DNA from: Candidatus Limnocylindrales bacterium
GTDB lineage: Bacteria; Chloroflexota; Limnocylindria; Limnocylindrales; CSP1-4
Direction: 5' to 3'
Assembly: GCA_035709325.1 (NCBI GenBank)
Contig: DASTEU010000220.1
Coordinates: forward strand, 1-28,176
Length of the DNA stretch: 28,176 nucleotides
In this document: in pieces, positions 15,485-28,176 of the stretch
How the letters are laid out: each line of letters begins with the position of its first letter
How positions within the stretch are numbered: position 1 is the stretch's first letter
Notes under the pieces: model-generated
What the model was told of the DNA's origin: nothing
What the model saw: only the letters and a program-made list of their open reading frames with translations
The model's database searches: none
Translations under genes and position numbers: made by a program

Positions 15485-16303
15485 CTACAGCTCGATCCGC
15501 GACATCCGGCTGATTGCGATGCCGGCCAGGCCGGCCGTGATGAGCGCCCATGAGACGGGCGTGATCCACGAAACCTCCGCCCCCGACAGCGCCGCGGCCG
15601 GCCACGCCAACATCGACGTCGGCAGGAACGGCGAGATGTCGAACGGCAGGAGGCCCCCGAACATCGCCGGAAGGGCGAAGACCGCCAGGCCGATTGCGAC
15701 GATCCCCGTCTGGGCCGGGACCACGACCCCGGCCGCGAGCCCGACGGTCGCGAAGAAGACGATCACCGCGGCGACGCCGATTGCCAGGCCCGCGAGCGCC
15801 TCGACCGGCGGCATGCCGTAAAGGCCGATCACGACACCGACCGTCACCGCGAGCGGGACCAGCCCGGCTGCCGCGACGAGGATCGCGCTCGACGAGGCCC
15901 ATTTCGAGAGCCTGATCGAACGCCGGGTCACCGGCTTGGAGGCGACCCAGGCAAGGGTTCCGGCCTCGCGCTCGCGAACGATCAGGCTCGCGACAGCGAA
16001 GATCGTGGCAAGAACGAAGATCTGGCCCGACACCGCCGCAAAGAGGTTGTCGAGCGGCTCCTGCGAGCCGATCTGCGGCGGCGCCACGTCCGGCGGCAGG
16101 CTGGCCGCGATCGTGGCCGTGATCCAGCCGTTCGCGGCGGACAGGACCATGAAGGCGCTGACGACCGCGAAGACGATCCAGACCCGACGGCCGCGGACCC
16201 ACTCGGTCGCGTCCTTGCGTAGCAGCGGCCGGAAGCCGGCCAGCCGGCCGAACGAGGTGGTTGCCGGTGCCGAAGCGGCGCCGGAGACGATCGAGGCGGT
16301 CAT
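15485..16303 (-). CDS. ABC-2-type exporter permease (272 aa)
   Basis: LLRKDATEW near the N-terminus, IVREREAGTLAWVASKPVTR motif and six TM segments. Its start is coupled to the ATPase stop. Confidence 0.9.
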   Translation of the reverse strand: MTASIVSGAASAPATTSFGRLAGFRPLLRKDATEWVRGRRVWIVFAVVSAFMVLSAANGWITATIAASLPPDVAPPQIGSQEPLDNLFAAVSGQIFVLATIFAVASLIVREREAGTLAWVASKPVTRRSIRLSKWASSSAILVAAAGLVPLAVTVGVVIGLYGMPPVEALAGLAIGVAAVIVFFATVGLAAGVVVPAQTGIVAIGLAVFALPAMFGGLLPFDISPFLPTSMLAWPAAALSGAEVSWITPVSWALITAGLAGIAISRMSRIEL

Positions 16304-17259
16304 GCCGCACGCTCCTTGGTATCGACGAGGCGGAGGAAGACGTCCTCCAGCGCGAGACGGACGAGGCCGTTCTCGATGAGGGTCAGGTCGCGGTCGGCCG
16401 CGAACCGGGTGATGCCGCGCTGAACGCGCGACGCATCGTCGGGGTGGATCCGGATGACGTACGTCCGGACGTCGCCGTCGCGGCCGGTCGCCTCGACCGA
16501 GAGCGCCCCCGGCAGGGCCGCCAGGTCGGGTGCCGTGCCGTCGTCGGCGCCGCCGATCGCGACCCGGAGCTGGTCAAGGGTGAAGCTCGCGAGCAGGTCG
16601 GTCGTCGCCGACTCGCGGACGAGGCGGCCGCCATCGAGGATGGCGACACGATCGCTCACGCGCTGGACGTCGTCGAGGATGTGGGTCGAGTAGAACACGG
16701 TCGTCTCGCCCTTCAGCCGGGCCATGAGGTCGAGGACCTCGCGGCGGCCGATCGGGTCGAGGGCGCTGACCGGCTCGTCGAGCAGGAGGACCGATGGCCG
16801 GGTCACGAGCGCCTGGGCGATGCCCAGCCGCTGGCGCATCCCGCCCGAGTACGTGCTCGTCCGCCGACCCGCAGCGTCGGCCAGCCCGACCGTGGCGAGG
16901 ATCCGGTCGATCCAGGCGCGATCGGTGGCCGAGGCGTCGGGCGCCAGCGAGGCGACGAACTCGAGGACTTCGCGCCCGGTCATCCAGTCGTAGAAGCGCG
17001 GCTCCTGGGCGAGGTAGCCGACGCCGTGTCGGTAGGCCTCGCCGGCTGCGAGCGGGATTCCCCCGACGCTGGCCGTCCCCGACGTCGGTCGGATGAGGCC
17101 GGCGAGGACCTTGAGGACGGTCGTCTTGCCCGCGCCGTTCGGGCCGAGGAAGCCGTAGATCGAGCCGGCCGGCACGTCGAGGTCGAGGCCGGTCACGGCC
17201 CGAACCTCACCGTAGTGCTTCGTGAGGCCGGCCGTCGTGATGGCCGATGAACTGGTCAT
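16300..17259 (-). CDS. ABC exporter ATP-binding protein (about 319 aa)
   Basis: Start MTSSS (ATG 17259, GGAG RBS). Motifs GPNGAGKTT, YSGGMRQRLGIA, LLDEP, STHIL and C-terminal LEDVFL. Confidence 0.95.
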   Translation of the reverse strand: MTSSSAITTAGLTKHYGEVRAVTGLDLDVPAGSIYGFLGPNGAGKTTVLKVLAGLIRPTSGTASVGGIPLAAGEAYRHGVGYLAQEPRFYDWMTGREVLEFVASLAPDASATDRAWIDRILATVGLADAAGRRTSTYSGGMRQRLGIAQALVTRPSVLLLDEPVSALDPIGRREVLDLMARLKGETTVFYSTHILDDVQRVSDRVAILDGGRLVRESATTDLLASFTLDQLRVAIGGADDGTAPDLAALPGALSVEATGRDGDVRTYVIRIHPDDASRVQRGITRFAADRDLTLIENGLVRLALEDVFLRLVDTKERAA

Positions 17260-17657
17260 GTGCTGGTCTCCGCGCTGGCGAGTCTCGGGCTGCTCGCACT
17301 GGAGACAGCCTCGCGTCGGGCGGGCTCGCTGTCGTCGGCCCGTGGTGCCGATCCCGGCACTCCGTTCAGCGCGACGGCGCTGGCGGCAGCGCCCCCGGCG
17401 GATCGGGCGACCTCGTCCCGGAGTCGCGGGTGCGGCAACTCGGCGCATGGACATTCGTCGCATTCGACGCCTGCGATGTCGCCGGCGCGCGGGCTCGCGG
17501 GCCGGCTCGGCTCGGCCCGCCCGAGTAGGGCGCCGAATGCACCGCCGATCCCGATGACCGTGGGTGCATACCGCCCGGCCGGGCGGTCGCCACGCTGCGC
17601 ATCGCCGCCGGGCGTCTCCGCCGAAGTCACCGCCGATCCCGATGACCGTGGGTGCAT
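17256..17657 (-). CDS. Possible small hypothetical protein (may be spurious)
   Basis: Its stop overlaps the ABC ATPase ATG (ATGA) and it contains a short hydrophobic stretch and CDECPC. However, its 5' part runs through non-triplet repeats and has no clear RBS. Confidence 0.25.
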   Translation of the reverse strand: MHPRSSGSAVTSAETPGGDAQRGDRPAGRYAPTVIGIGGAFGALLGRAEPSRPASPRAGDIAGVECDECPCAELPHPRLRDEVARSAGGAAASAVALNGVPGSAPRADDSEPARREAVSSASSPRLASAETST

Positions 17658-17897: not shown

Positions 17898-18602
17898 TCA
17901 GTCGAGGCCGCTCCCGGGTCGGACGAGGCCCGCCTCGTAGGCGAGGACGACGGCCTGGGCGCGGTCCCGCAGGTCGAGCTTCAGGAGGGCGTGCGAAACG
18001 TGCGTCTTCACGGTCGGCTCCGCGAGAACGAGGCGGTCGGCGATCTCGCGGTTCGAGAGCCCCCGGGCGACAAGCTTGAGCACTTCCAGCTCACGCTCGG
18101 TCAGCTCGCGCAGGCGCTCGTGGCGTTCGCCGGCCGGTGCCGGCAACCGGTCCCGAAAGCGGTCCAGCAGCTGCCGCGTTACGGACGGCGCCAGCAGCGC
18201 ATCGCCGGCGGCCACGATCCGGATGGCCTGGGCGAAGTCGGCCGGCGGCACGTCCTTGAGGAGGAAACCGCTGGCCCCGGCCCGTAACGCCTCAACGACG
18301 TACTCGTCGGCGTCGAAGGTCGTCAGGATCAGGACCCGCGGCGGACGTCCGGCAGCGAAGCCAGCATCGCCGTCGCCGGACCGCCCGACGAGGCGACGGG
18401 TCGCCTCGACACCGTCCATCACCGGCATGCGGATGTCCATGACGACGACGTCCGGCGCCAGTCGGGCGGCCTGCTCGAGGGCCTGTCGGCCGTCAGTCGC
18501 CTCGCCGACGACCTCGATGTCGGGCTCGTCCTGGAGGATCATCCGGAAGCCGACCCGGACGAGCTGCTGGTCGTCGACGAGCAGGACGCGGACGGCCGTC
18601 AT
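17898..18602 (-). CDS. NarL/LuxR-family response regulator (234 aa)
   Basis: VLLVDDQ, DVVVMDIRMPVMDG, ILTTFD, GFLLKD and C-terminal HTH LTERELEVLKLVARGLSNREIA..TVKTHV. Confidence 0.97.
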   Translation of the reverse strand: MTAVRVLLVDDQQLVRVGFRMILQDEPDIEVVGEATDGRQALEQAARLAPDVVVMDIRMPVMDGVEATRRLVGRSGDGDAGFAAGRPPRVLILTTFDADEYVVEALRAGASGFLLKDVPPADFAQAIRIVAAGDALLAPSVTRQLLDRFRDRLPAPAGERHERLRELTERELEVLKLVARGLSNREIADRLVLAEPTVKTHVSHALLKLDLRDRAQAVVLAYEAGLVRPGSGLD

Positions 18603-19924
18603 CCGCCGGCCCCGGAGGTCGGCATGTCGCCGAGCGGCATGCCGCCGAGCGGCAGCCCGCCGAGCGGGAGGCGGGCGACGACCCGGAAGCCGCGACCGGC
18701 GGGACCGGCTTCGAGCTGGCCGCCGAAGAGCGCCACCCGCTCGCGCATCCCGATGAGCCCGTGGCCCGACTCGCCGGGCGTCCCGAGGCTCGGTTCGCCG
18801 CTACCGCCCTCGTCGACGACGCGGACCTCGAGCGCTGCCGGCTCGAAGCGGACCGCGACCCGGGCTCGCGCGCCGGGAGCGTGTTTGAGCGCGTTTGTGA
18901 GCGCCTCCTGGATGATCCGGTAGGCCGACAGCTCGATGCCGGGGTCGAGCGGCCGTCGTTCGCCGGTGATCGAGAGCTCGACCGGCATGCCGGCGGCCCG
19001 AACCTTCTCGAGCAGCTCGCCGAGCCGGTCGAGGCTGGGCATCGGGGCGAGGGAATCGTCGGGCGTGGCGGTGTGGGCGGCGCCTCCCGGGCCGTCGCCG
19101 GCCGCCCCGCTCCGGCCGAGGATGCCGAGCATCCGGCGCATGTCGGATAGCGCCTGGCGACCCGTCGCGTCGATCGCCTCCATCGCCGCCCGCGCGTCCG
19201 CCGGGCGGCGGTCGAGCGCCCGCAGCGCGGCCCCGGCCTGGATCACGATGACGCTGACGTGGTGGGTGACGACGTCGTGGAGCTCGCGAGCGATCCGCTC
19301 CCGCTCCTCGGCGACGGCCCGCTGGGCGCGCTCCTCGCGCTCGCGCTCGAGTCGGCGGGCACGCTCCTCGACGGTCCCGATGTGGGCCCGGCGGTCGCGC
19401 GCCCACGTCCCGAGGACCCACGCCACGAAGACCGCGAGCTCGGTCTGGACGAGGCCGCTGAGCGACGCGGGCAGTGAGGCCTTCCAGGCGATGAGCCCAC
19501 CGACCGCGACCGCCCCGACGATCGCGGCGATCGCCGAACGGCGCGGCTCGTAGCGCTCGGCGACCGTGAACAGCGCGATGAGGAAGCCGAGCGTCGAGTT
19601 GATTCCCTGGGTGGCGAGGGAGGCGTGGGCGATCGTCGCGCCGGTCGTCAGCACGAAGACCGACATGGGCCAGATGCGACGGAGCGCCAGAGGCAAGGTC
19701 TGGAGGAGCAGCAGGACGAGGCTCAGCGGATCCACCAGGCCGAGGTCTTGAGCCCCGCCCCACAACGTGACGAGCGAGAGGGCCGTCAGGCCCAGGGCGA
19801 GCAGCACGTCGACGGTCATCGGGCTGGCGGCGAGGCGTGCGCGGAGCCGGCCCGAGATGGCGCCGTTCGGGGGGGTCGCAGTCACGCCGACAAGCGTAGT
19901 GCGACTGAGAGCCTCGGACATCAT
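18599..19924 (-). CDS. Membrane sensor histidine kinase, HisKA_3 (NarX/LiaS-like), 441 aa
   Basis: N-terminal TM helices, H-box ERERIARELHDVVTHH, YRIIQEALTNALKHA, and DEG..GHGLIGMRERV. Confidence 0.96.
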   Translation of the reverse strand: MMSEALSRTTLVGVTATPPNGAISGRLRARLAASPMTVDVLLALGLTALSLVTLWGGAQDLGLVDPLSLVLLLLQTLPLALRRIWPMSVFVLTTGATIAHASLATQGINSTLGFLIALFTVAERYEPRRSAIAAIVGAVAVGGLIAWKASLPASLSGLVQTELAVFVAWVLGTWARDRRAHIGTVEERARRLEREREERAQRAVAEERERIARELHDVVTHHVSVIVIQAGAALRALDRRPADARAAMEAIDATGRQALSDMRRMLGILGRSGAAGDGPGGAAHTATPDDSLAPMPSLDRLGELLEKVRAAGMPVELSITGERRPLDPGIELSAYRIIQEALTNALKHAPGARARVAVRFEPAALEVRVVDEGGSGEPSLGTPGESGHGLIGMRERVALFGGQLEAGPAGRGFRVVARLPLGGLPLGGMPLGDMPTSGAGG

Positions 19925-19930
19925 CCCCCG

Positions 19931-19972
19931 GTCGCGATCCGATCGCGACGGCGGGAGCGCTCAGGGAGCGCT
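19931..19972. promoter_or_regulatory. Perfect palindrome GTCGCGATC-C-GATCGCGAC plus an 11-bp-period direct repeat GGGAGCGCT x2 upstream of the kinase gene
   Basis: The palindrome is at 19931-19949, 6 nt from the ATG. The direct repeats are at 19953-61 and 19964-72. Function is unknown. Confidence 0.4.
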
Positions 19973-20020
19973 TCGGTGCGCGGCGTCCGACCGCCGAGCC
20001 CGGCCGCCGAGCCGGGCGGC

Positions 20021-21421
20021 CTACCCGGCCACGCTCATCGCGCGCCCTGTGTCCAGGAGGAACGGCGGCAGCCAGGCCGGGATGTTCGAGAACGGCAGGA
20101 CGTCCGGGTCGAGGCGGATGCCGAGGGCCTCGGTCATGAACCGGCGGCGAGCCTCGATCCGCCGCCAGGCGTCCGGGAACGCGCCCGCGAACGCGTCCCG
20201 CAGCGACGCGTCGGCGAGGGCAATGCCGTCCTCGATGTTCGTCGTGAACCAGTCCGTGCCGGTCGCCGGGATGACGTCGACCTGGAACGCCATGCCCGAA
20301 CGCAGCTCGATCGTCGAGCCGGGTGCGATCGGCGAGTTGACCCACTCGTCGAGATGGATCTGATGGCCCGGGTTCAGGAAGATCCCGAAGAACGGGTCCC
20401 CGAGCCGGCGCTCGACGATCTCGTGCAGGGCGCCGCCGACCTGGCCGACGCGAAGTGCCTCGTACCATTCGACGATCGCGCCGAAGTACGGCCCGACGAG
20501 TCGCTCGACATAGTCGCGGATCCCGATGGGCAGCTCCTCCGCACCCTCGACGACGAAGCCGGCGCGGCAGTTGAGCGCGCCCCAGATCCCGAATGCGATC
20601 GTGAACCGGTCGCCCCGCTCGATCGGTCGGTCGCCCGGGCTCAGCAGCCCGAACGAGGCCCGCGGGCCGGCGCTGAGCATCAGATGGCATGAGAGCGGCG
20701 TGCCGTCCCACGCGAGCAGGCGAACCGCCTCCCGCTCCGTCATCCCGGGCCGCAGCCCTCGGAGCACGCGGAGGACGCCGCTCGACGTGCGGCAGGCGGC
20801 ATTCTCGAGCGCGGCGAGCTGCTCGACCTCGTTGATCACCCGGAGGCCGTCCCCCGAATCGATGAGCAGGTCGGTGGCGTTCTCGACGCTCCCGCTCGCG
20901 CCGGCCGCCGCGCGCAGCTCGTCGACGAGGTAGGCCGGCGCGTCGTGGCGGTCGAACCGACCGTAGGTCTTCCAGCCTACGACGCCGATGCGAGTGCCCG
21001 CCCGGACGCCGGCGTCGCGCAGGATCGCCTCGAGGGGCTGCGAGCGGTCCCGCGGCTGGCTCGGCAGGCTGAGATCCTGGAAGAGCACCCGCTCCATCGG
21101 CAGCGGCGCGGCGCCGGCAGTTCCGTAGCACTCGTTGCCGACGAGGATCAGCGGGTCGCCGGTCGGGGCGACGATGAGGATCGCCTCCTCGAACCGCGGG
21201 TCGAATCCGGTCAGCCACGCGAGGTTCGCGCTGTGCTCGCGGTCGGCGTAGACGACGAGCCGGTCGTAGCCGCGTTCGGCCGACCGGGCCCGGAGGCGCT
21301 CCAACCGATCGGCGTAGAGCCCGGCCGGCAGCTCGGGTGACGTCTCCGGCAGGCCGAAGTCCGGGAGGTCGATCTCGGTGAGGCGAGCGACGCGGGCCTG
21401 CCCGGGATCGCCGCTAGTCAC
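20021..21421 (-). CDS. M24 (aminopeptidase P/creatinase-like) fold protein with a degenerate metal site, about 466 aa
   Basis: Creatinase-N-like RLERLR..LVVYADREHSANLAWLTGFDP, then pita-bread-fold motifs NPGHQIHL, LRSGMAFQVD and NIEDG. The GTG at 21421 overlaps the upstream stop. Confidence 0.75.
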   Translation of the reverse strand: MTSGDPGQARVARLTEIDLPDFGLPETSPELPAGLYADRLERLRARSAERGYDRLVVYADREHSANLAWLTGFDPRFEEAILIVAPTGDPLILVGNECYGTAGAAPLPMERVLFQDLSLPSQPRDRSQPLEAILRDAGVRAGTRIGVVGWKTYGRFDRHDAPAYLVDELRAAAGASGSVENATDLLIDSGDGLRVINEVEQLAALENAACRTSSGVLRVLRGLRPGMTEREAVRLLAWDGTPLSCHLMLSAGPRASFGLLSPGDRPIERGDRFTIAFGIWGALNCRAGFVVEGAEELPIGIRDYVERLVGPYFGAIVEWYEALRVGQVGGALHEIVERRLGDPFFGIFLNPGHQIHLDEWVNSPIAPGSTIELRSGMAFQVDVIPATGTDWFTTNIEDGIALADASLRDAFAGAFPDAWRRIEARRRFMTEALGIRLDPDVLPFSNIPAWLPPFLLDTGRAMSVAG

Positions 21422-23085
21422 GGCGTCGTCGCTCCCGGCTGCCACGGCTCGACCTCCGTCGCACCGCGGCGCACCGTCACGAATCCGTCGGCGGTCACCG
21501 GAAGCCACGGCCCGACCGCTCCGTCCGGCCACGTCACGCGGACCTCCGCCCGCTCCGTCGCGCCGAGCCCGAAGTGAATCCAGCCGAGCTGGCCTCCGGC
21601 GTGCCCGCCGCCAATCGTGACCTCGCGTTCGACGGTCCGCCCGCCGGCCGCCACCGCCACCCAGGCGCCGATCGCGTCGCGGTTCGGCCGGTCCGGGTCG
21701 TCGAGCCGGACGCCGAGCCAGCGGCCGAGCGGCGCCGGGGCCTCGGGAGTGCCCGAGCCGACGCTCCGCCAGACCGCGACGGGTTCGCGGCGGTTCACGA
21801 CGACGAGGTCGAGCAGGCCGTCGAGGTTGAGGTCGACGAGCGCGGCGCCGCGGGCCTTCGCGAACGAGACGACGCCCGCGGCCTCGGCCCCCTCGACGAA
21901 CGTCCCGTCAGCCTTGCCGAGGAGCAGGTTGCTGGGGTCCTTCGCCGCGTAGTCGGCCATCGACTCGACATTGCCCTTGGCGACGAAGAGGTCAATGAAC
22001 GTGTCGTTGTTGACGTCCTGGAACTCGGCGTGCCAGGCGGTCGAGGGCAGGGACGTGTCGCCGGCGTACGGCCGGTGGGCGGTCGCCCCCCGCTCGACCG
22101 CGATGTCGGCATAGGTCGGTCGACCGGGGCCTTCGACGAGGGCCTGGAGCTTGTTGTCGCCCTGGCTCGTGAGGAACACCTCGGGCAGGCCGTCGCCGGT
22201 GAGGTCATGGCTGGCGATTCCCATGCCCCAGATCCGCATCCGGCGCCAGCCGTCGTCGGCGGTGTAGAGCGCCGGCTCCTCGCCGAGCGCGACTCGCCAG
22301 AGCTGCTCCTGGCCGTCCTGTGAATAGTGCTGGTCGTTCGTCATCCGGAGGTCGCGGCGGCCCGTCCGGCTCCAGTCGCTGAACAGGATCGAGAGCGTGC
22401 ACCAGCCGGGCGTCAGCGTCGTCGGGTTGCCGTACATCGGGCCCTCCGCCTTCGGGCGGATCAGCTCGTTGTCGGCGCAGCTCCCGGTCCACTCGCCGGT
22501 AGCGTCGAGCTCGAGGTAGTTCCCGAAAGCGAGCGTCGGCGAGGCCGCCTCGCCCTCCCACGTCGCGCTGAAGCCGACCGTCCAGGAGTCGCCGCCGTCG
22601 AAGCCGAGCGACGCGTTCGCCCGCTCGAACCGGCAGTCGCCGAGCCCTCGGAGGATGACGTTCTCGCCGAGCCGGAGGACGACGAGGTCGGTCCGGCCAT
22701 CGCCGTCGACGTCGATCGGATAGGCGCCCGTCACCGCGTCGAGGTCGGTCGCCGGATCGGGCAGCGCCGTGAAGCGCAGGGCGCCGCCGATCGGGGTGTC
22801 GTTGCGATAGAGCGCGGCCGACCGCGCCCCGCCGGCAAGGTAGAGCTCGGGCCGGCCGTCGTCGTTGCAGTCGAACGCCGCGACGCCGCCGCCCACGAAG
22901 AACTCGAAGTCTCCGTCGTAGACCTGCTCGATGCCGGCCGCGGCCGCCTCCTCCACGAACCGCGGGGCGGCGACGGCCGGCGTCGGCGCGGCCGACGCGA
23001 GGAGCACGGCCGCGCCGCCGACGAGGACGATCGCGGCCGTGCCGACCGCCGCGATGCCGATCAGGCGTCGGGACATCGCGGGCAT
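21418..23085 (-). CDS. Exported CRTAC1-family protein (FG-GAP/DxDxDG repeats plus ASPIC/UnbV domain), about 555 aa; start may be 23076
   Basis: N-terminal hydrophobic signal/anchor. Repeats DCNDDG, DVDGDG, DLTGDG, DVNNDT and DLNLDG. C-terminal NRDAIGAWV..GGGHAGGQLGWIHFGLG..VTWPDG is the ASPIC/UnbV signature. Confidence 0.9.
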   Translation of the reverse strand: MPAMSRRLIGIAAVGTAAIVLVGGAAVLLASAAPTPAVAAPRFVEEAAAAGIEQVYDGDFEFFVGGGVAAFDCNDDGRPELYLAGGARSAALYRNDTPIGGALRFTALPDPATDLDAVTGAYPIDVDGDGRTDLVVLRLGENVILRGLGDCRFERANASLGFDGGDSWTVGFSATWEGEAASPTLAFGNYLELDATGEWTGSCADNELIRPKAEGPMYGNPTTLTPGWCTLSILFSDWSRTGRRDLRMTNDQHYSQDGQEQLWRVALGEEPALYTADDGWRRMRIWGMGIASHDLTGDGLPEVFLTSQGDNKLQALVEGPGRPTYADIAVERGATAHRPYAGDTSLPSTAWHAEFQDVNNDTFIDLFVAKGNVESMADYAAKDPSNLLLGKADGTFVEGAEAAGVVSFAKARGAALVDLNLDGLLDLVVVNRREPVAVWRSVGSGTPEAPAPLGRWLGVRLDDPDRPNRDAIGAWVAVAAGGRTVEREVTIGGGHAGGQLGWIHFGLGATERAEVRVTWPDGAVGPWLPVTADGFVTVRRGATEVEPWQPGATTP

Positions 23086-23117
23086 TGAAGCACAACGGCC
23101 GCTGCCGGCCGGCCCGG

Positions 23118-24104
23118 TCAGCCGGCCGCCGCGTAGATTCGCTCGATCACCTGCATGTTGGCGACCGCGTCCTCGGGCGGCGTCGGCGTCGGCAGGTCGT
23201 CGAGGATCGCCTCGGCGAAGCGCTCGGCCTCGACGCCGTACGGATCGGCCGTGTCAAACGTGAACGTCTCGAGGGCCGGCGCCACCGGCGGGTCGCCGCC
23301 GGCCACGAGATGGACCCGGGTCGGCCGGTCCGGCGGGATGTTGAACGGGATCTCGACCGAGATCCGCCCGGTCGTGCCGTAGATGTCGACCCGCTGGTCG
23401 TCCTCGGCCCGGATCGAGCAGGTGAACGCCGCGACGCCGGCGGTGCCGAACTCGAGGAGTGCGCTCGTCACGACGTCCACGCCGTCCGGCGGCTCGCGCC
23501 GGATCGAGGCCTCGACCCGGGTCGGCTCCGCGGCGAACAGCATCCGCGACAGGTTGACGCAGTAGCAGCCGATGTCCATGAGGGCGCCGCCGCCGAACTC
23601 GCGGATGTTGCGGATGTTGGAGGCGTCCTCATTGAAGTAGGAGAACCAGCTCTGGATCGCCTGGAGCCGGCCGATCCGGCCGGACGCCACGAGATCGCGT
23701 ACGGCGACCCAGGAGGGATGGAGGCGGTACATAAAGGCCTCCATGAGGCGGACGCCCTCGGTCCGGCAGGCGTCGACCATCCGCTGCGCGTCCGCCGAGG
23801 TCAGGGCCAGCGGCTTCTCGCACAGGACGTGTTTGCCGGCCCTCGCGGCGGCGATCGTCCACTCTGCATGAAGGTGATTGGGGAGCGGGATGTAGACCGC
23901 GTCGACGTTCGTGTCGGCGAGGAGCGCCTCGTACGTCTCGTGGGCCCCCGGGATGCCCAGCTCGTCGGCGACCCGTCGGGCCTGGCCCGGCGCCCGCGAG
24001 GCGATCGCGACGACCTCGACCCGCTCGGCCGTGCGCATCCCGGGAACGACCTTGCGGCGGGCGATGTCGGCGGTCGAGAGGATCCCGATTCGGAGCTTCG
24101 ACAT
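23118..24104 (-). CDS. Gfo/Idh/MocA-family oxidoreductase (about 328 aa)
   Basis: Start MSKLRIGILSTADIA (ATG 24104). Motifs DAVYIPLPNHLH, HVLCEKP, MEAFMYR and GGGALMDIGCY. Confidence 0.95.
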   Translation of the reverse strand: MSKLRIGILSTADIARRKVVPGMRTAERVEVVAIASRAPGQARRVADELGIPGAHETYEALLADTNVDAVYIPLPNHLHAEWTIAAARAGKHVLCEKPLALTSADAQRMVDACRTEGVRLMEAFMYRLHPSWVAVRDLVASGRIGRLQAIQSWFSYFNEDASNIRNIREFGGGALMDIGCYCVNLSRMLFAAEPTRVEASIRREPPDGVDVVTSALLEFGTAGVAAFTCSIRAEDDQRVDIYGTTGRISVEIPFNIPPDRPTRVHLVAGGDPPVAPALETFTFDTADPYGVEAERFAEAILDDLPTPTPPEDAVANMQVIERIYAAAG

Positions 24105-24112
24105 CGGTCCGC

Positions 24113-24823
24113 TCAGCCCCACGACGTCTCGGTGACCGGGCGCATCGCGACCTCGAGGATCCGGTGGGTCCGCGGCCGGGTCAACACGAACAGGACCATC
24201 TCGGCGACGTCCTCCGGCCGCATCATGCCGGCCAGCTGGGGCATGTCCGGCGTCCGGCCGCGGCCCATCGCGAAGTCGGTCGCGACGCCGCCGGGACAGA
24301 CGTTCGTGCAGCGGACACCCCGTTCGCGGAGCTCGTGGTCGAGCGCGCGAGTCAGCCCGACCTGGGCGAACTTCGACGAGCAGTAGACCGCCTCGTTCGG
24401 GAGCCCGCGCCGGCCCGCCTCGCTGGCGATCGTCACGAGGTCGGCGGCATCGCTCTTCACGAGGTGGGGCAGGGCGGCCCGCACGGAGTAGATCGCGCCC
24501 TTCACGTTGACGTCGATCATCTCCTCGAGCTGGTCGGCCGGCAGGTCGAGGAACGGTCCGTAGGCCCCGACGCCGGCATTGACGACGAGGATGTCGAGGC
24601 CGCCGAACGCCTCGACGGTTGCGGCGACCATCGCCTCGAGCGAGGCCGGGTCGCGGACGTCGGTCGGCCGGGCGACGGAGCCCTCGATCCCGAGATCGTC
24701 GCCGCTCCGCGAGGCGAGCCCGAGACGGACACCCTCGGCGGCAAGCGCCCTGGCGGTCGCCGCCCCGATCCCGCGGCTCGCTCCGGTGATCAGCGCGACG
24801 CGGCCCTGCAAGGTTTCCACCAC
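24113..24823 (-). CDS. Short-chain dehydrogenase/reductase (about 236 aa)
   Basis: TGASRGIG, NAG and YCSSK motifs. GTG start with an AGAGGAGG RBS. Confidence 0.95.
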   Translation of the reverse strand: MVETLQGRVALITGASRGIGAATARALAAEGVRLGLASRSGDDLGIEGSVARPTDVRDPASLEAMVAATVEAFGGLDILVVNAGVGAYGPFLDLPADQLEEMIDVNVKGAIYSVRAALPHLVKSDAADLVTIASEAGRRGLPNEAVYCSSKFAQVGLTRALDHELRERGVRCTNVCPGGVATDFAMGRGRTPDMPQLAGMMRPEDVAEMVLFVLTRPRTHRILEVAMRPVTETSWG

Positions 24824-24866
24824 GCGTTCCTCCTCTGGCTGCCATCCTCCGAAACCGCAACCCGGC

Positions 24867-24925
24867 TTGACACCGCCCCGGCGTTGTAAGAGTCTGTCAC
24901 AGTTTGAAAGAAAGGAACACAAATT
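24867..24925 (+). promoter_or_regulatory. Candidate promoter (TTGACA-17 bp-GAGTCT) and AT-rich imperfect dyad AGTTTG-N13-CAAATT (possible ROK operator)
   Basis: -35 at 24867-72, -10 at 24890-95, dyad at 24901-24925. This is a striking AT-rich island in the divergent SDR/ROK spacer. Confidence 0.55.
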
Positions 24926-24928
24926 ACG

Positions 24929-26164
24929 GTGTCGATGCGCGGTGACGAGCTCGGGCAGCGAAGCGAGACGGTTCGTCGGGCGAACCTGGCCGCGATCGTC
25001 CGCCAGCTCCACACGCGCGGGCCCCAGTCGCGCTCGACGCTCGTCAGTCGGACGGGCCTCACCCGCAGCGCGATCCGCGGCCTGATCGGCGAGCTCGCCG
25101 CCGCGGGGCTCGTCTCCGAGCGGGCACCGGCGCCGCTCGGCACGCCGGGCCGCCCCTCGCCGATGGTCCGCCTCAACCCGGAGCGGGCGACCGTCCTGGC
25201 CCTCGAGATCGCGGTCGATTCGCTGGCCGCCGCGCTCGTCGGGATCGGCGGCCGGGTCGTCGCCATCGACCGCGTCGATCGGCAGCGCGGTCACACGTCG
25301 GTCGAAGAGATCGCGGCCGATCTCGCCGAGCTCGCCCGGCGCGTCGTCCCGGCCGGCCGCGACCCCTCGACCCTCGTCGCGATCGGCGTGGCGATGGTCG
25401 CCGTCGTCCGCCGCGACGACGGGCTCGTCGCGATGGCCCCGAACCTCGGCTGGAAGGACGTTCCGCTCGGCGCCCGGCTGGCCTCGGCGCTCGGCACCGA
25501 GACCCCGATCGTCGTCGCAAACGAGGCCGACCTGGGCGCACTCGCCGAGCACCGGCGAGGGGCGGCGGTCGACGTCGACGACGTCGTCTACATCTCGGGC
25601 GAGGTCGGCGTCGGCGGCGGGATCATCGTCGCAGGCCAGGCGCTGACCGGCGTCGCCGGCTACGGTGGCGAGATCGGCCACATGCCCCTGAACCCGGACG
25701 GCCTGCCGTGCCACTGCGGCTCGGTCGGTTGCTGGGAGACCGAGGTCGGCGAGCGGGCGCTGCTTCGGCGGGCCGGCCATCGGGTCGACGGCGGCGGGGC
25801 CGAGGTGGATGCGGTCCTCGCCGAGGCGTCGGTCGGCGACCCGCGCGCCCGGGAGGCGCTCGAAGAAGTCGGCCGCTGGCTGGGCACGGGACTCGCCGGG
25901 CTCATCAACATCTTCAACCCCGAGCTCGTGGTCCTCGGCGGCCTGCTCGGCCGGATCCATCCCTATGTCGCGGCGACCGTCGCGGCCGAGGTGGACCGGC
26001 GGGCGCTGCCGGCGTCGCGCGAGCTCGTCCGGATCGTCCCGGCCTCCCTCGGCGTGGACGCTCCCCTGCTCGGCGCCGCCGAGCTGGCGTTCGAGCCGCT
26101 CCTCTCCGATCCGGCGGCGTGGCTCGGCGCCCGTGGCGTCGTTCTGGAGCTGGCCAGTGCCTGA
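24929..26164 (+). CDS. ROK-family transcriptional regulator (XylR/NagC-like), 411 aa
   Basis: N-terminal wHTH (RANLAAIVRQL..SRSTLVSRTGLT) and ROK motifs APNLGW, NEADLGALAE, GVGGGII, GEIGH and the Zn motif CHCGSVGCWE. Confidence 0.95.
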   Translation: MSMRGDELGQRSETVRRANLAAIVRQLHTRGPQSRSTLVSRTGLTRSAIRGLIGELAAAGLVSERAPAPLGTPGRPSPMVRLNPERATVLALEIAVDSLAAALVGIGGRVVAIDRVDRQRGHTSVEEIAADLAELARRVVPAGRDPSTLVAIGVAMVAVVRRDDGLVAMAPNLGWKDVPLGARLASALGTETPIVVANEADLGALAEHRRGAAVDVDDVVYISGEVGVGGGIIVAGQALTGVAGYGGEIGHMPLNPDGLPCHCGSVGCWETEVGERALLRRAGHRVDGGGAEVDAVLAEASVGDPRAREALEEVGRWLGTGLAGLINIFNPELVVLGGLLGRIHPYVAATVAAEVDRRALPASRELVRIVPASLGVDAPLLGAAELAFEPLLSDPAAWLGARGVVLELASA

Positions 26165-26244
26165 GCCCGTCGCGACGGCGGCGCGGCCCGGCGAGTGCCG
26201 GTTGGCGCGCATTGTTCCTCGGCCGTTTCTTGCTAGCGGAGGGG

Positions 26245-26253
26245 TGATAGGTT
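26245..26253 (+). promoter_or_regulatory. Candidate extended -10 box (TGaTAGGTT) for the sugar ABC operon
   Basis: TGn-TANNNT about 55 nt upstream of the ATG at 26309, followed by a GGAGGAG RBS. Confidence 0.4.
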
Positions 26254-26308
26254 AGGCGACGAATCGAGTCCCGATCGGGAATGACATCGAGGTGGAGGAG
26301 AGTCCCCA

Positions 26309-27460
26309 ATGTCCCATCGTCGATTCTGGGCCCTCATCGCGACCATGGCGATCGCGATCACGGCCTGTACGAGTCCCGGCGCCAGCCCGGCCGGCAGCCC
26401 CGCGGGCAGCCCTGCCGGTAGTGCGGTCGCCGGCGACTGCCTCGTCGGAGTGTCCTGGAACAACTACCAGCAGGAGCGCTGGGCCAAGGCCGACGAGCCG
26501 GCGATCCAGGCGGCGCTCACGGCCGGCGGCGCTGAATACGCGCGGACGGACGCCCGCGACGACGAGAGCCAGCAGCTCACCGACATCGACAGCCTGATCA
26601 ACCAGGGTGCCGACGTCCTCATCGTCCTCGCCAAGGACTCCGTCGCGATCCAGCCGGCCGTCGACAAGGCGAAGGCCGCCGGCATCCCCGTCATCGCCTA
26701 CGACCGCCTGATCTTCGACAGCGAGACGTTCTACATCAGCTTCAACAACCAGGGCGTCGGCGCGTCGATGGCCGAGGTGATCACGCAGGAGGTCACCGAG
26801 GGCAACTACGTGATCATCAAGGGCCACCAGGCCGACCCGAACGCGGACTTCCTGCGGGCGGGCATGGAGCCCTTCCTCGAGCCGCTCGAATCCTCGGGCG
26901 CGATCGAGATCGTGTTCGAGGACTACACCGACACGTGGCGCACCGAGGCGGCCCAGGAGAACATGGAGACCGCCCTCAACCAGGTCAACAACGACGTCCA
27001 GGCCGTCATCTCCGAGAACGACTCGATGGCGATCGGCGTCATCGCGGCGCTCGACCGGGTCGGACTGGCCGGCGAAGTCCCTGTCACCGGCCAGGACGGC
27101 GACAAGGCGAACCTCAACCACGTCGCCCTCGGCAACCAGCTCGTGGACGTCTGGAAGGACGCCTTCGCCCTCGGCGAGACGGCCGGCAACGTCGCGGTCC
27201 AGCTCTGCGGCGGCACGGCCATGGCCGATGTCAAGGCGCCCGACACGCTGAAGGACCACGTCCGGCCGGACAGCCTCGACGCGGTGGACTTCACGACCGA
27301 GGATCCCGACGGGAACGAGGTCACCGTGAAGTCGATCATCCTCAAGCCCACCCCGGTCACCCAGGAGAACCTGAATCTCCCGATCGACCTCGGCTGGCTG
27401 ACCAAGGAAGAGGCCTGCGCCGACGTCGATCCGGTCACCGGACCGGAGGCGTGCAAGTAG
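26309..27460 (+). CDS. xylF: D-xylose-type ABC transporter substrate-binding lipoprotein (383 aa)
   Basis: Lipobox AITAC and (SPAG)3 linker. QERW, GIPVIAYDRLI, YISFNNQGVG, GNYVIIKG..DPNA, ENDSMA and VTGQDG are the XylF/ChvE pattern. The ligand is inferred. Confidence 0.8.
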   Translation: MSHRRFWALIATMAIAITACTSPGASPAGSPAGSPAGSAVAGDCLVGVSWNNYQQERWAKADEPAIQAALTAGGAEYARTDARDDESQQLTDIDSLINQGADVLIVLAKDSVAIQPAVDKAKAAGIPVIAYDRLIFDSETFYISFNNQGVGASMAEVITQEVTEGNYVIIKGHQADPNADFLRAGMEPFLEPLESSGAIEIVFEDYTDTWRTEAAQENMETALNQVNNDVQAVISENDSMAIGVIAALDRVGLAGEVPVTGQDGDKANLNHVALGNQLVDVWKDAFALGETAGNVAVQLCGGTAMADVKAPDTLKDHVRPDSLDAVDFTTEDPDGNEVTVKSIILKPTPVTQENLNLPIDLGWLTKEEACADVDPVTGPEACK

Positions 27461-27488
27461 GCCGCGTCTGAACACCCAGGTTCGTAGT

Positions 27489-27519
27489 CGGCCTGCCCGC
27501 GGGTCCCGCGGGCAGGCCG
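27489..27519. other. Perfect intercistronic stem-loop after the binding-protein gene
   Basis: CGGCCTGCCCGCGGG-T-CCCGCGGGCAGGCCG has 15-bp arms and no U-tract. Confidence 0.75.
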
Positions 27520-27561
27520 CATCCTGAGCGAGGACCGAAGGGGAGGCTCCAGGAGCACACG

Positions 27562-28176
27562 ATGGCTGAACTCGCCGAGCCGGCTCCGAAGGAGGCCGGC
27601 GGCAGCGGCCTTCGCCACCAGGCCGGGCGCCTCGTCACCCGAGCCGCCGACGCCGTCCGGGCGACCGAGATCAATCTGCGGCTGTTCGGGATGGTGGCCG
27701 CGCTCATCGTCCTGATCTTCGGCTTCGAGATCGCCCAGCCGGACCGCGACTTCCTCACCCCAGAGAACATCGTCACGCTCGTCGTCCAGTCGGCGACGAT
27801 CGCGATCATCGCGACCGGGATGGTCCTGATCATCGTGTCGCGCAACATCGACCTCTCGGTCGGCTCGGTCGTCGGCGTCGTCGCGATGGCCTACGCCCTG
27901 CTCATGTCCGACATCCTGCCCGACCTCATCGGCGTCGAGCACCCGCTCGACTGGATCATCGCCCTCGCGATCGGCATCGCGATCGGCGCCCTCATCGGCG
28001 GCTTCCAGGGCTTCGTCATCGCCTACATCGGCGTCCCGTCCTTCGTCGTGACCCTCGGCGGGCTGCTCGCGCTGCGGGGCCTCGTCTGGGTGATGTCGGG
28101 CGGTCCGACGGTCTCGGGCATCGACCCGACGTTCGTGCTCCTCGGCGGCGGGCCGCGGGGCTCGCTCGGGGGGACG
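27562..28176 (+). CDS. xylH: Sugar ABC transporter permease (XylH/RbsC type), 3'-truncated by the window
   Basis: ATG at 27562 with AGGAG RBS. Motifs FLTPENI, ATGMVLIIVSRNIDLSVGS and IGVPSFVVTLGGLL. Confidence 0.85.
   Translation, partial: MAELAEPAPKEAGGSGLRHQAGRLVTRAADAVRATEINLRLFGMVAALIVLIFGFEIAQPDRDFLTPENIVTLVVQSATIAIIATGMVLIIVSRNIDLSVGSVVGVVAMAYALLMSDILPDLIGVEHPLDWIIALAIGIAIGALIGGFQGFVIAYIGVPSFVVTLGGLLALRGLVWVMSGGPTVSGIDPTFVLLGGGPRGSLGGT

Follow-up and report, generated by a model that had tools for sequence, protein, structure and literature searches.

Bacterial D-xylose loci, as known from Bacillus and Actinomycetota and, for the XylFGH importer, from E. coli, combine a ROK-type XylR regulator, a XylFGH importer of the CUT2 type and the enzymes XylA and XylB. 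Here we analyzed one stretch of DNA of 28,176 bp (the window), which is the entire contig C220 (72% G+C) of a Limnocylindria metagenome-assembled genome (MAG G000, 58% complete; Candidatus Limnocylindrales, Chloroflexota, judging by how nearly identical proteins are named) and which carries a xylose-type uptake locus together with genes for a CRTAC1-like propeller and for an M24-like protein of the creatinase/prolidase fold. The locus is like the described ones in its ROK gene, which is next to or divergent from the transporter and whose product has an N-terminal DNA-binding region, in its Peripla_BP_4 lipoprotein and BPD_transp_2 permease and, when relatives and a second contig of the same MAG (C293) are included, in its ATPase and adjacent xylA and xylB. 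It differs from them in a binding protein that scores below the xylF equivalog cut-off and in extra genes, namely the conserved propeller and M24-like genes and the optional genes for a short-chain dehydrogenase/reductase (SDR), a Gfo/Idh/MocA sugar oxidoreductase (Gfo) and a vanadium-haloperoxidase-like (VHPO-like) protein; to our knowledge, none of these five is known from described xyl operons. A literature search found no description of xylose use in Limnocylindria or of a link of CRTAC1/UnbV to xylose or haloperoxidases. Our results indicate that the region very likely makes up half of a xylose island that is laterally mobile and of the isomerase type. The conserved core of this island is xylFHG plus the CRTAC1-like propeller gene, usually followed by the M24-like gene.

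Codon-position G+C (GC3) was used to sort true genes from numerous spurious open frames, and the products were assigned using Pfam. On the plus strand, the locus comprises a gene for a ROK-family, XylR-like regulator (24929–26164; ROK, 193.9 bits), a gene for a xylF-like sugar-binding lipoprotein of the CUT2 type (26309–27460; Peripla_BP_4, 170 bits) and the 5′ part of a gene for a xylH-like permease, which is cut by the contig end after its first 205 codons (27562–28176; BPD_transp_2, 39 bits). Four minus-strand genes lie on the other side of a divergent control region of 105 bp (24824–24928, between SDR and ROK). These encode the SDR (24113–24823; 236 aa; adh_short, 168.5 bits), the Gfo protein (23118–24104; 328 aa; GFO_IDH_MocA, 96 bits), the propeller with FG-GAP and UnbV_ASPIC regions (21418–23085; 555 aa; FG-GAP_3, 78.8 bits, and UnbV_ASPIC, 43.8 bits) and the M24-like protein (20021–21421; 466 aa; Creatinase_N, 29.3 bits, and Peptidase_M24, 21.0 bits against a cut-off of 23). 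Successive minus-strand genes are separated by an 8-bp gap and a 32-bp gap, and the last two share a 4-bp GTGA overlap formed by the stop of the propeller gene and the GTG start of the M24-like gene. A first-pass annotation of this DNA had listed these seven genes with the same gaps, overlap and spacer, all of which were exact on recheck.

The best-scoring model for the binding protein was that of xylF (TIGR02634; 280.2 bits), with the equivalog cut-off of 389.55 not being reached; the scores against PRK10355 and the ChvE model were 182 bits (cut-off 504) and 148 bits respectively. Since the protein falls below the xylF cut-off, ‘xylose-type’ or ‘xylF-like’ is the right label, and the former, chosen in the first pass, was apt. 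The lipoprotein has the lipobox ITAC followed by a Ser/Pro/Ala/Gly linker before the binding domain; as read from the sequence, this design would be apt for a binding protein tethered to a monoderm cell. The linker itself is repetitive (GSPAGSPAGSPAGS-like) and occupies 26375–26440 of the window, between the lipobox cysteine and the binding domain. The permease fragment scored 124 bits against the GguB model and, because it is cut by the contig end, the genes beyond xylH are unreadable within the window. On another contig of the same MAG, C293 (L212, 1–3392; 3392 bp), lie xylB, the 3′ part of xylA and, on the opposite strand, xylG; this xylB is 75% identical to that of a relative. In one relative, xylA and xylB are followed on the opposite strand by xylG, xylH, xylF and the ROK gene, and then by genes for Gfo, the propeller, the M24-like protein, a histidine kinase and a response regulator; the convergent arrangement of xylAB and xylGHF was seen again in many related loci. 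Very probably, C293 continues the window past the cut xylH. Whether xylA and xylB follow downstream, a question already raised in the first pass, can thus be answered in the affirmative, as both are on C293 and stand directly beside xylG in relatives, which points to the ordinary isomerase/kinase route for the imported sugar.

To follow the locus through related genomes, 80 loci (L103–L182) were collected via the M24-like protein, with one genome per species; this search, made with a 12-sequence alignment, returned close relatives only (at least 68% identity). Gene presence was counted in the 57 of the 80 loci that have at least 8 kb of flank, and adjacency of propeller and M24-like genes was scored in the 74 loci with enough upstream sequence. 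The propeller gene adjoins the M24-like gene in 73 of these 74 loci; it lies upstream on the same strand in 69, overlaps in 2, and has swapped its place in 2 (L153 and L176). Among the 57 loci, xylH was present in 56, xylF in 55 and xylG in 53, followed by Gfo (40), ROK (39), VHPO-like (22) and SDR (20). The ROK, Gfo, SDR, VHPO-like and xylAB genes shift strand and position between loci, and the propeller–M24 pair stays near xylFHG. Sixteen loci of the same genus have ROK–xylF–xylH opposite Gfo–propeller–M24, with two kinds of Gfo among them (70–76% and 37–39% identity). We also searched 400 Chloroflexota genomes for propeller orthologues. Thirteen of the 14 Limnocylindria genomes with the M24-like gene carry the propeller gene as well, and in eight fetched loci (six from Limnocylindria, and L191 and L197 from another Chloroflexota family) the propeller gene lies beside xylFHG in a genome that has no M24 match. 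Furthermore, all nine Limnocylindria genomes (93–98% complete) that have neither propeller nor M24-like gene also lack a xylF orthologue, with the positive control G016 being matched. These counts suggest that the unit that is gained or lost is the transporter plus the propeller, usually with the M24-like protein, and that the dehydrogenases are optional.

Of the 80 loci, 30 bear Actinomycetota labels, for the most part those of Acidimicrobiia. RpoB of one such genome, G456, matched best to the Streptomyces and Mycobacterium structures (1775 bits versus 1530 for Firmicutes), and RpoB of the Limnocylindria genome G016 matched best to Firmicutes. Between G456 and G016, identity was 58% for RpoB (tblastn), 71% for the M24-like protein and about 65% for the propellers. 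The M24-like gene was found in about 10% of the sampled genomes of the class of G456, always at 64–81% identity, and in the M24 tree the Chloroflexota and Actinomycetota labels are interleaved in one tight, well-supported clade. In the Acidimicrobiia version (G456 and G457), the ROK protein is about 50% identical and its gene is inverted, as is the Gfo gene. The sequence comparisons fit a lateral spread of the island between Limnocylindria and Acidimicrobiia, the direction and the number of events not being settled by the tree. The co-occurrence that the first pass had suggested testing was therefore recovered in that the propeller and M24-like genes are linked non-randomly to a xylF-type importer in many species and in two phyla; outside Limnocylindria and Acidimicrobiia, no propeller gene lies by genes of the M24-like family, so that ‘across phyla’ is true for one laterally shared orthogroup only.

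The propeller gave an FG-GAP_3 score of 78.8 bits (cut-off 26.9) in four stretches and, at residues 471–533, a C-terminal UnbV_ASPIC (PF07593) score of 43.8 bits (cut-off 23.4), and this C-terminal region is also alignable in sequence to CRTAC1. Five DxDxDG repeats of the calcium-binding type had been reported in it; three of them stand as strict Dx[DN]xDG motifs (residues 72, 125 and 418), while the other two are degenerate (294 DLTGDG and 357 DVNNDT). Residues 11–29, behind an SRR motif, are strongly hydrophobic (Kyte-Doolittle 2.43), which would fit either a cleaved signal or a membrane anchor, and four Cys are near-invariant across the family. The hydrophobic N-terminus and the four conserved Cys would fit the export that had been proposed for this protein. 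No N-terminal hydrophobic segment was found in the M24-like, Gfo or SDR proteins in the same Kyte-Doolittle scan, in which no signal-peptide predictor was used. The loops, the N-terminus and the Cys of the propeller fit a predicted exported, calcium-binding protein that may be either membrane-anchored or secreted. The AlphaFold2 model of the propeller (pLDDT 91.3) is a multi-bladed all-beta propeller, and structure comparison over model residues 38–542 placed it closest to murine CRTAC1 (9etn_A; Z 37.3, rmsd 2.9, 451 residues aligned), the next-best propellers having Z 28; with Foldseek, the match to 9etn had a TM score of 0.69 and an E-value of 1.2e-22. By its predicted structure, the protein is thus a true member of the CRTAC1/UnbV family. 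Weaker fold matches were an integrin-like fungal lectin, aldos-2-ulose dehydratase and an AA5 alcohol oxidase; matches of this kind between a model and solved folds show no more than that sugars can be bound or converted by propellers of this sort, and they carry no functional weight.

The M24-like protein was also modeled with high confidence (pLDDT 95.5), as a two-domain protein with Creatinase_N and pita-bread folds and about 60 extra C-terminal residues. Foldseek matched it to PepE, Pyrococcus prolidase and Xaa-Pro dipeptidases (E 4e-20 to 1e-17), and the fold also matches those of DoeA, creatinase, DddP and agropine synthesis cyclase. When aligned to the prolidase 1wn1, Ala276 and Ala287 occupy the positions of the two bridging Asp ligands and neither segment has an acidic residue; the other three metal-ligand positions are kept, as His353, Asp382 (for Glu) and Glu397. 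Family-wide, the two Asp columns hold Ala/Cys/Asn/Gly/Thr and Ala/Ser/Gly/Thr/Val and are never acidic, and, besides H353, D382 and E397, some 30 other polar residues are nearly invariant, a good number of which lie in the N-domain. The loss of the Asp ligands bears out the name ‘pseudo-M24’ given in the first pass. The Peptidase_M24 (PF00557) score stays below the gathering threshold. In the model and the alignment, the protein has a conserved enzyme-like pocket and is neither a decayed gene nor a dinuclear metallopeptidase, with its activity being predicted. Creatinase is likewise not known to have a dinuclear metal site, and by this parallel the substrate of the M24-like protein would probably be small and non-peptide. 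With 412 representatives at E < 1e-30 among 1.84 billion, this is a small family, and in the ESM Atlas the protein fell solely into ‘hypothetical / Creatinase_N / M24’ clusters.

More distant members of the M24-like family (32–46% identity) were inspected through seven contig look-ups and three Chloroflexota loci. None of them has an adjoining propeller gene, and sugar loci make up four of the seven informative contexts. The four comprise a ROK gene with a CUT2 ABC transporter and Amidohydro_2, a LacI gene with AP_endonuc_2 and an aldo-keto reductase, an alcohol dehydrogenase (ADH) gene with WbsX and AP_endonuc_2, and an aldolase–SDR fusion with Gfo and Amidohydro_2. In a distant Chloroflexota genome (L076, 6605–8686, minus strand, and neighbors), a gene for a class II aldolase–SDR fusion and a Gfo gene are divergent from the M24-like gene, on the other side of which lie genes for a carboxylesterase, DUF1684 and Amidohydro_2; fusions of this kind are known from rhamnose catabolism.

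CRTAC1-like propellers were also found with partners of peroxidase type. A VHPO-like gene lies directly before the propeller gene in 22 of the 57 loci, sometimes inverted (for example L079, 12343–14202, minus strand). Its product has 620 aa, an N-terminal anchor and DUF6851 and VCPO_2nd domains, and it is related to the solved bacterial vanadium haloperoxidases 9ptr, NapH3, 9l8x and 4cit, to which its SGHS and GGIH motifs align. Searching the window and the 58%-complete MAG gave no VHPO-like gene. A fusion of a CRTAC1-like propeller with a di-haem cytochrome c peroxidase (CCP_MauG plus cytochrome c; 987–1001 aa) occurs in another Chloroflexota family, where its reading frame is open in five genomes of two genera (L201, 9341–12304; L204–L207). 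The fusion gene begins 2 nt after malG, within an operon of maltodextrin type with the order MalK–ROK–substrate-binding protein (X25)–MalF–MalG–fusion–amylase–amylase. As assigned from domain matches, a CRTAC1-like propeller thus sits in a second, unrelated sugar-uptake operon, and in both settings it is partnered by a putative H2O2-using family. More CRTAC1-like genes lie near other ABC importers; because such importers are common in those genomes, these neighborhoods carry little weight.

The two dehydrogenases behaved differently from the pair. The SDR reached the cut-off of no NCBIfam model, and among solved proteins it is closest to clavulanic acid dehydrogenase and a Thermus SDR. Its gene is missing from all 16 same-genus loci and present in 20 of the 57 related loci, and an SDR–Gfo combination is present in other genera and in a second family of Limnocylindria. 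For Gfo, the best NCBIfam model was the D-xylose 1-dehydrogenase Gfo6 (NF041392; 140 bits against a cut-off of 350), and the nearest solved proteins are the uncharacterized 4had, the sugar 3-ketoreductase KijD10 and aldose–aldose oxidoreductase. In the 40 loci that have it, Gfo comes in two non-orthologous versions (70–76% and 37–41% identity) and is sometimes inverted or moved. The proposal that the four minus-strand genes form one module was therefore not supported, given these counts and the two versions of Gfo. Nor was oxidative handling of the imported sugar, which the first pass had suggested, since xylA and xylB are present and the dehydrogenases are dispensable; with SDR and Gfo absent from so many loci, an oxidative pentose pathway is unsupported. 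Moreover, no xylonolactonase or xylonate dehydratase was found among the window genes or among the 23 called genes of the 21-kb locus of one relative, the genome having not been searched for them. SDR and Gfo are probably optional side-activities and no pathway backbone.

The ROK protein has weak, sub-threshold MarR_2 and HTH_20 matches at residues 22–65, in its N-terminal winged-helix region, and the translation shows the zinc motif CHCGSVGC in the ROK sugar-kinase-like domain. It scored about 148 bits against each of the NagC and Mlc models, under their cut-offs, and its orthologues share 58–70% identity and hold an equal position in most Limnocylindria loci. In the control region, TTGACA (about 24866–24871) and a −10-like box (TAAGAG, also given as TAcGAG) form a promoter-like pair upstream of the ROK gene, an inverted element, TTTG-N13-CAAA (24903–24923), overlies the ROK ribosome-binding site, and on the other strand GGAGG precedes the SDR start. 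This upstream architecture with its TTTG-N13-CAAA element was present in 55 of 68 distinct ROK-upstream regions, and four more have one-base variants; there is a single copy of the element in the 28-kb window and a single copy per related locus. From this conservation, TTTG-N13-CAAA may be the operator of the ROK protein, an assignment that says nothing on whether the minus-strand genes share the regulon. The ROK genes of the Acidimicrobiia type have another upstream motif (CCAACAAA). A scan of 19700–25100 for terminators and promoters found no sigma-70 match; its only hit was a weak GC hairpin between the Gfo and propeller genes, in their 32-bp gap.

To account for the linkage, we propose an extracellular role for the propeller in the step by which the importer acquires its substrate, where it would capture or help process a xylose-containing polymer or conjugate and, in many relatives, would work with the VHPO-like exoenzyme. 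The cytoplasmic M24-like enzyme, the gene of which lies directly downstream of the propeller gene and is often translationally coupled to it, would cleave a non-peptide bond, of the amide, amidine or lactone type, in the imported compound, after which xylose isomerase and xylulokinase would take over. Whether the pair serves sugar acquisition as a functional accessory is, in our estimate, evenly balanced. The division of labor, with capture or processing outside and non-peptide cleavage inside, is held far more tentatively, and we infer the biochemical steps of the pair, its co-transcription and its regulation by the ROK protein. Several observations weigh against the proposal. There is no glycoside hydrolase or esterase gene among the window genes, the binding protein is below the xylF equivalog cut-off as noted above, and a second copy of TTTG-N13-CAAA was sought before the minus-strand genes, xylF and xylA and was not found. 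Eight Limnocylindria genomes have the propeller with no M24 match, which indicates that the two gene products are not strictly interdependent; five propeller copies stand alone with no xyl genes nearby, and G264 has xylF and the M24-like gene with no propeller found. Three of the seven informative contexts of distant M24-like genes are unrelated to sugar, and a literature search yielded no biochemical work on bacterial CRTAC1/UnbV proteins or on the M24-like family. Finally, the strong linkage comes entirely from one orthogroup spread with the island, and related genomes are not independent, so that shared inheritance could account for much of the adjacency.

This last point leads to the alternative that the pair has a job unrelated to xylose, for example a cell-surface or envelope role and the hydrolysis of an unrelated small molecule, and lies beside xylFHG only through joint inheritance and transfer of the island. 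The restriction of the close orthogroup to Limnocylindria, Acidimicrobiia and a small number of other Chloroflexota would agree with such hitch-hiking, as would the gain and loss of the whole block together, the lone propellers, the distant M24-like genes that have no propeller beside them and the lack of a second ROK-upstream element before the minus-strand genes. However, the adjacency outlasts many independent rearrangements, among them the swap within the pair, inverted ROK and Gfo genes, and a VHPO-like gene that is inserted or inverted; the two genes of the pair are translationally coupled in the window; a CRTAC1-like propeller follows directly after the permease in an unrelated sugar operon of another family; and four of the seven distant M24-like contexts are sugar loci. 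We consider hitch-hiking unlikely, though it is an alternative to be taken seriously.

An oxidative pentose module similar to the Weimberg and Dahms routes, in which Gfo and SDR would oxidize a pentose and the M24-fold protein would serve as a hydrolase such as a lactonase, appears improbable. Gfo does have Gfo6 as its top NCBIfam model and sugar C1/C3 oxidoreductases as solved relatives, the M24-fold agropine synthesis cyclase makes, by its Swiss-Prot name, a sugar-derived lactone, and some distant M24-like genes adjoin Amidohydro_2 and dehydrogenase genes. Yet the Gfo6 score is far under its cut-off, SDR is missing in 37 and Gfo in 17 of the 57 loci, with Gfo being of two non-orthologous versions, the MAG has xylA and xylB, which adjoin xylG in relatives, one relative shows no IlvD/Edd-type dehydratase or known lactonase in its annotated flank of 21 kb, and the M24-like gene tracks the propeller and not the dehydrogenases. 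The partners of peroxidase type raise the further idea of peroxide-linked surface chemistry, in which the propeller would partner an H2O2-using enzyme (VHPO-like in the xyl loci, the fused di-haem peroxidase in the maltodextrin loci) and could present substrate for oxidative release or modification, make peroxide, or protect the uptake site. The anchored DUF6851–VCPO_2nd protein encoded immediately ahead of the propeller in 22 of the 57 loci, its kinship to solved vanadium haloperoxidases, the fusion in five genomes, and the presence of aldos-2-ulose dehydratase and the AA5 alcohol oxidase among the weaker fold matches are in its favor. Against this, 35 of the 57 loci are without the VHPO-like gene and neither the window nor the incomplete MAG yielded one (on this reading, the window copy of the propeller would have lost its peroxidase partner or would keep it elsewhere); the PAP2/VHPO signature also occurs in plain acid phosphatases, and the peroxidase chemistry of the VHPO-like protein therefore stays putative; the propeller is without an evident cofactor site; the weak fold matches have no functional weight; and we know of no catalytic activity of CRTAC1 itself. 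We regard this reading as improbable. The same holds for its broadest form, a long shot, in which CRTAC1-like propellers would generally serve the sugar ABC importers of monoderm soil bacteria as extracytoplasmic accessory factors, with H2O2-using enzymes oxidatively freeing or modifying polymer-bound sugars and the M24-like enzyme resolving the resulting conjugate in the cytoplasm.

The remainder of the window includes genes that Pfam assigned to a Zn-uptake system and to a LacI regulator, among others. The M24-like gene is followed by genes for a histidine kinase (HisKA_3/DUF7134), a response regulator of the LuxR type and an ABC-2 exporter (17898–19924 and 15485–17463). We asked whether these belong to the unit and rejected the idea, as they lie 3′ of the M24-like gene in two close-relative loci only (L046, of the same genus, and L092) and in no other examined locus; they are probably a separate module.

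Through comparative genomics, the accessory reading ties two families that have no experimentally assigned function, the CRTAC1/UnbV propellers and a creatinase/prolidase-fold family devoid of its metal site, to xylose-type sugar uptake. It also names candidate partners, XylF and the VHPO-like exoenzyme, and the soluble domains are expressible. In addition, the island is an example of a complete sugar-use module transferred between the abundant uncultured soil Limnocylindria and Acidimicrobiia. Should the peroxidase link be borne out, a non-hydrolytic route by which sugars are released in soils would be indicated, and if propellers were general accessory factors of importers, this would be the first molecular function for the CRTAC1/UnbV family, with a possible bearing on animal CRTAC1 and enediyne E4.

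Among characterized proteins, the M24-like protein is most like creatinase, the ectoine hydrolase DoeA, the dimethylsulfoniopropionate lyase DddP and agropine synthesis cyclase, with which it shares the two-domain fold (TM by target 0.64–0.81). It differs from them in sequence (12–20% identity), in its score below the Pfam M24 cut-off and in forming a small family of its own, with an invariant set of D60, E62, H63, R76, E78, E79, N96 and E97 in the N-domain and R286, H353, E359, W360, Q380, D382, E397 and D404 in the C-domain. The propeller has the UnbV_ASPIC domain in common with UnbV (E4) of the enediyne polyketide cassettes, the partner of the membrane protein UnbU (E5), and, going by the name of the Pfam family, UnbV would likewise be an exported protein of the propeller type; unlike those cassettes, the window has neither a polyketide synthase nor a UnbU-like membrane protein, and the context is sugar uptake, not secondary metabolism. 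With vertebrate CRTAC1/ASPIC (9etn), the likeness extends over the full-length fold, a propeller with Dx[DN]xDG loops followed by a C-terminal UnbV/ASPIC domain, and to the extracellular location predicted here. In contrast to the vertebrate protein, to which it is 17–19% identical, the window protein ends at residue 555 with no domain after UnbV/ASPIC, has a bacterial N-terminal anchor or signal and sits in a sugar-uptake locus.

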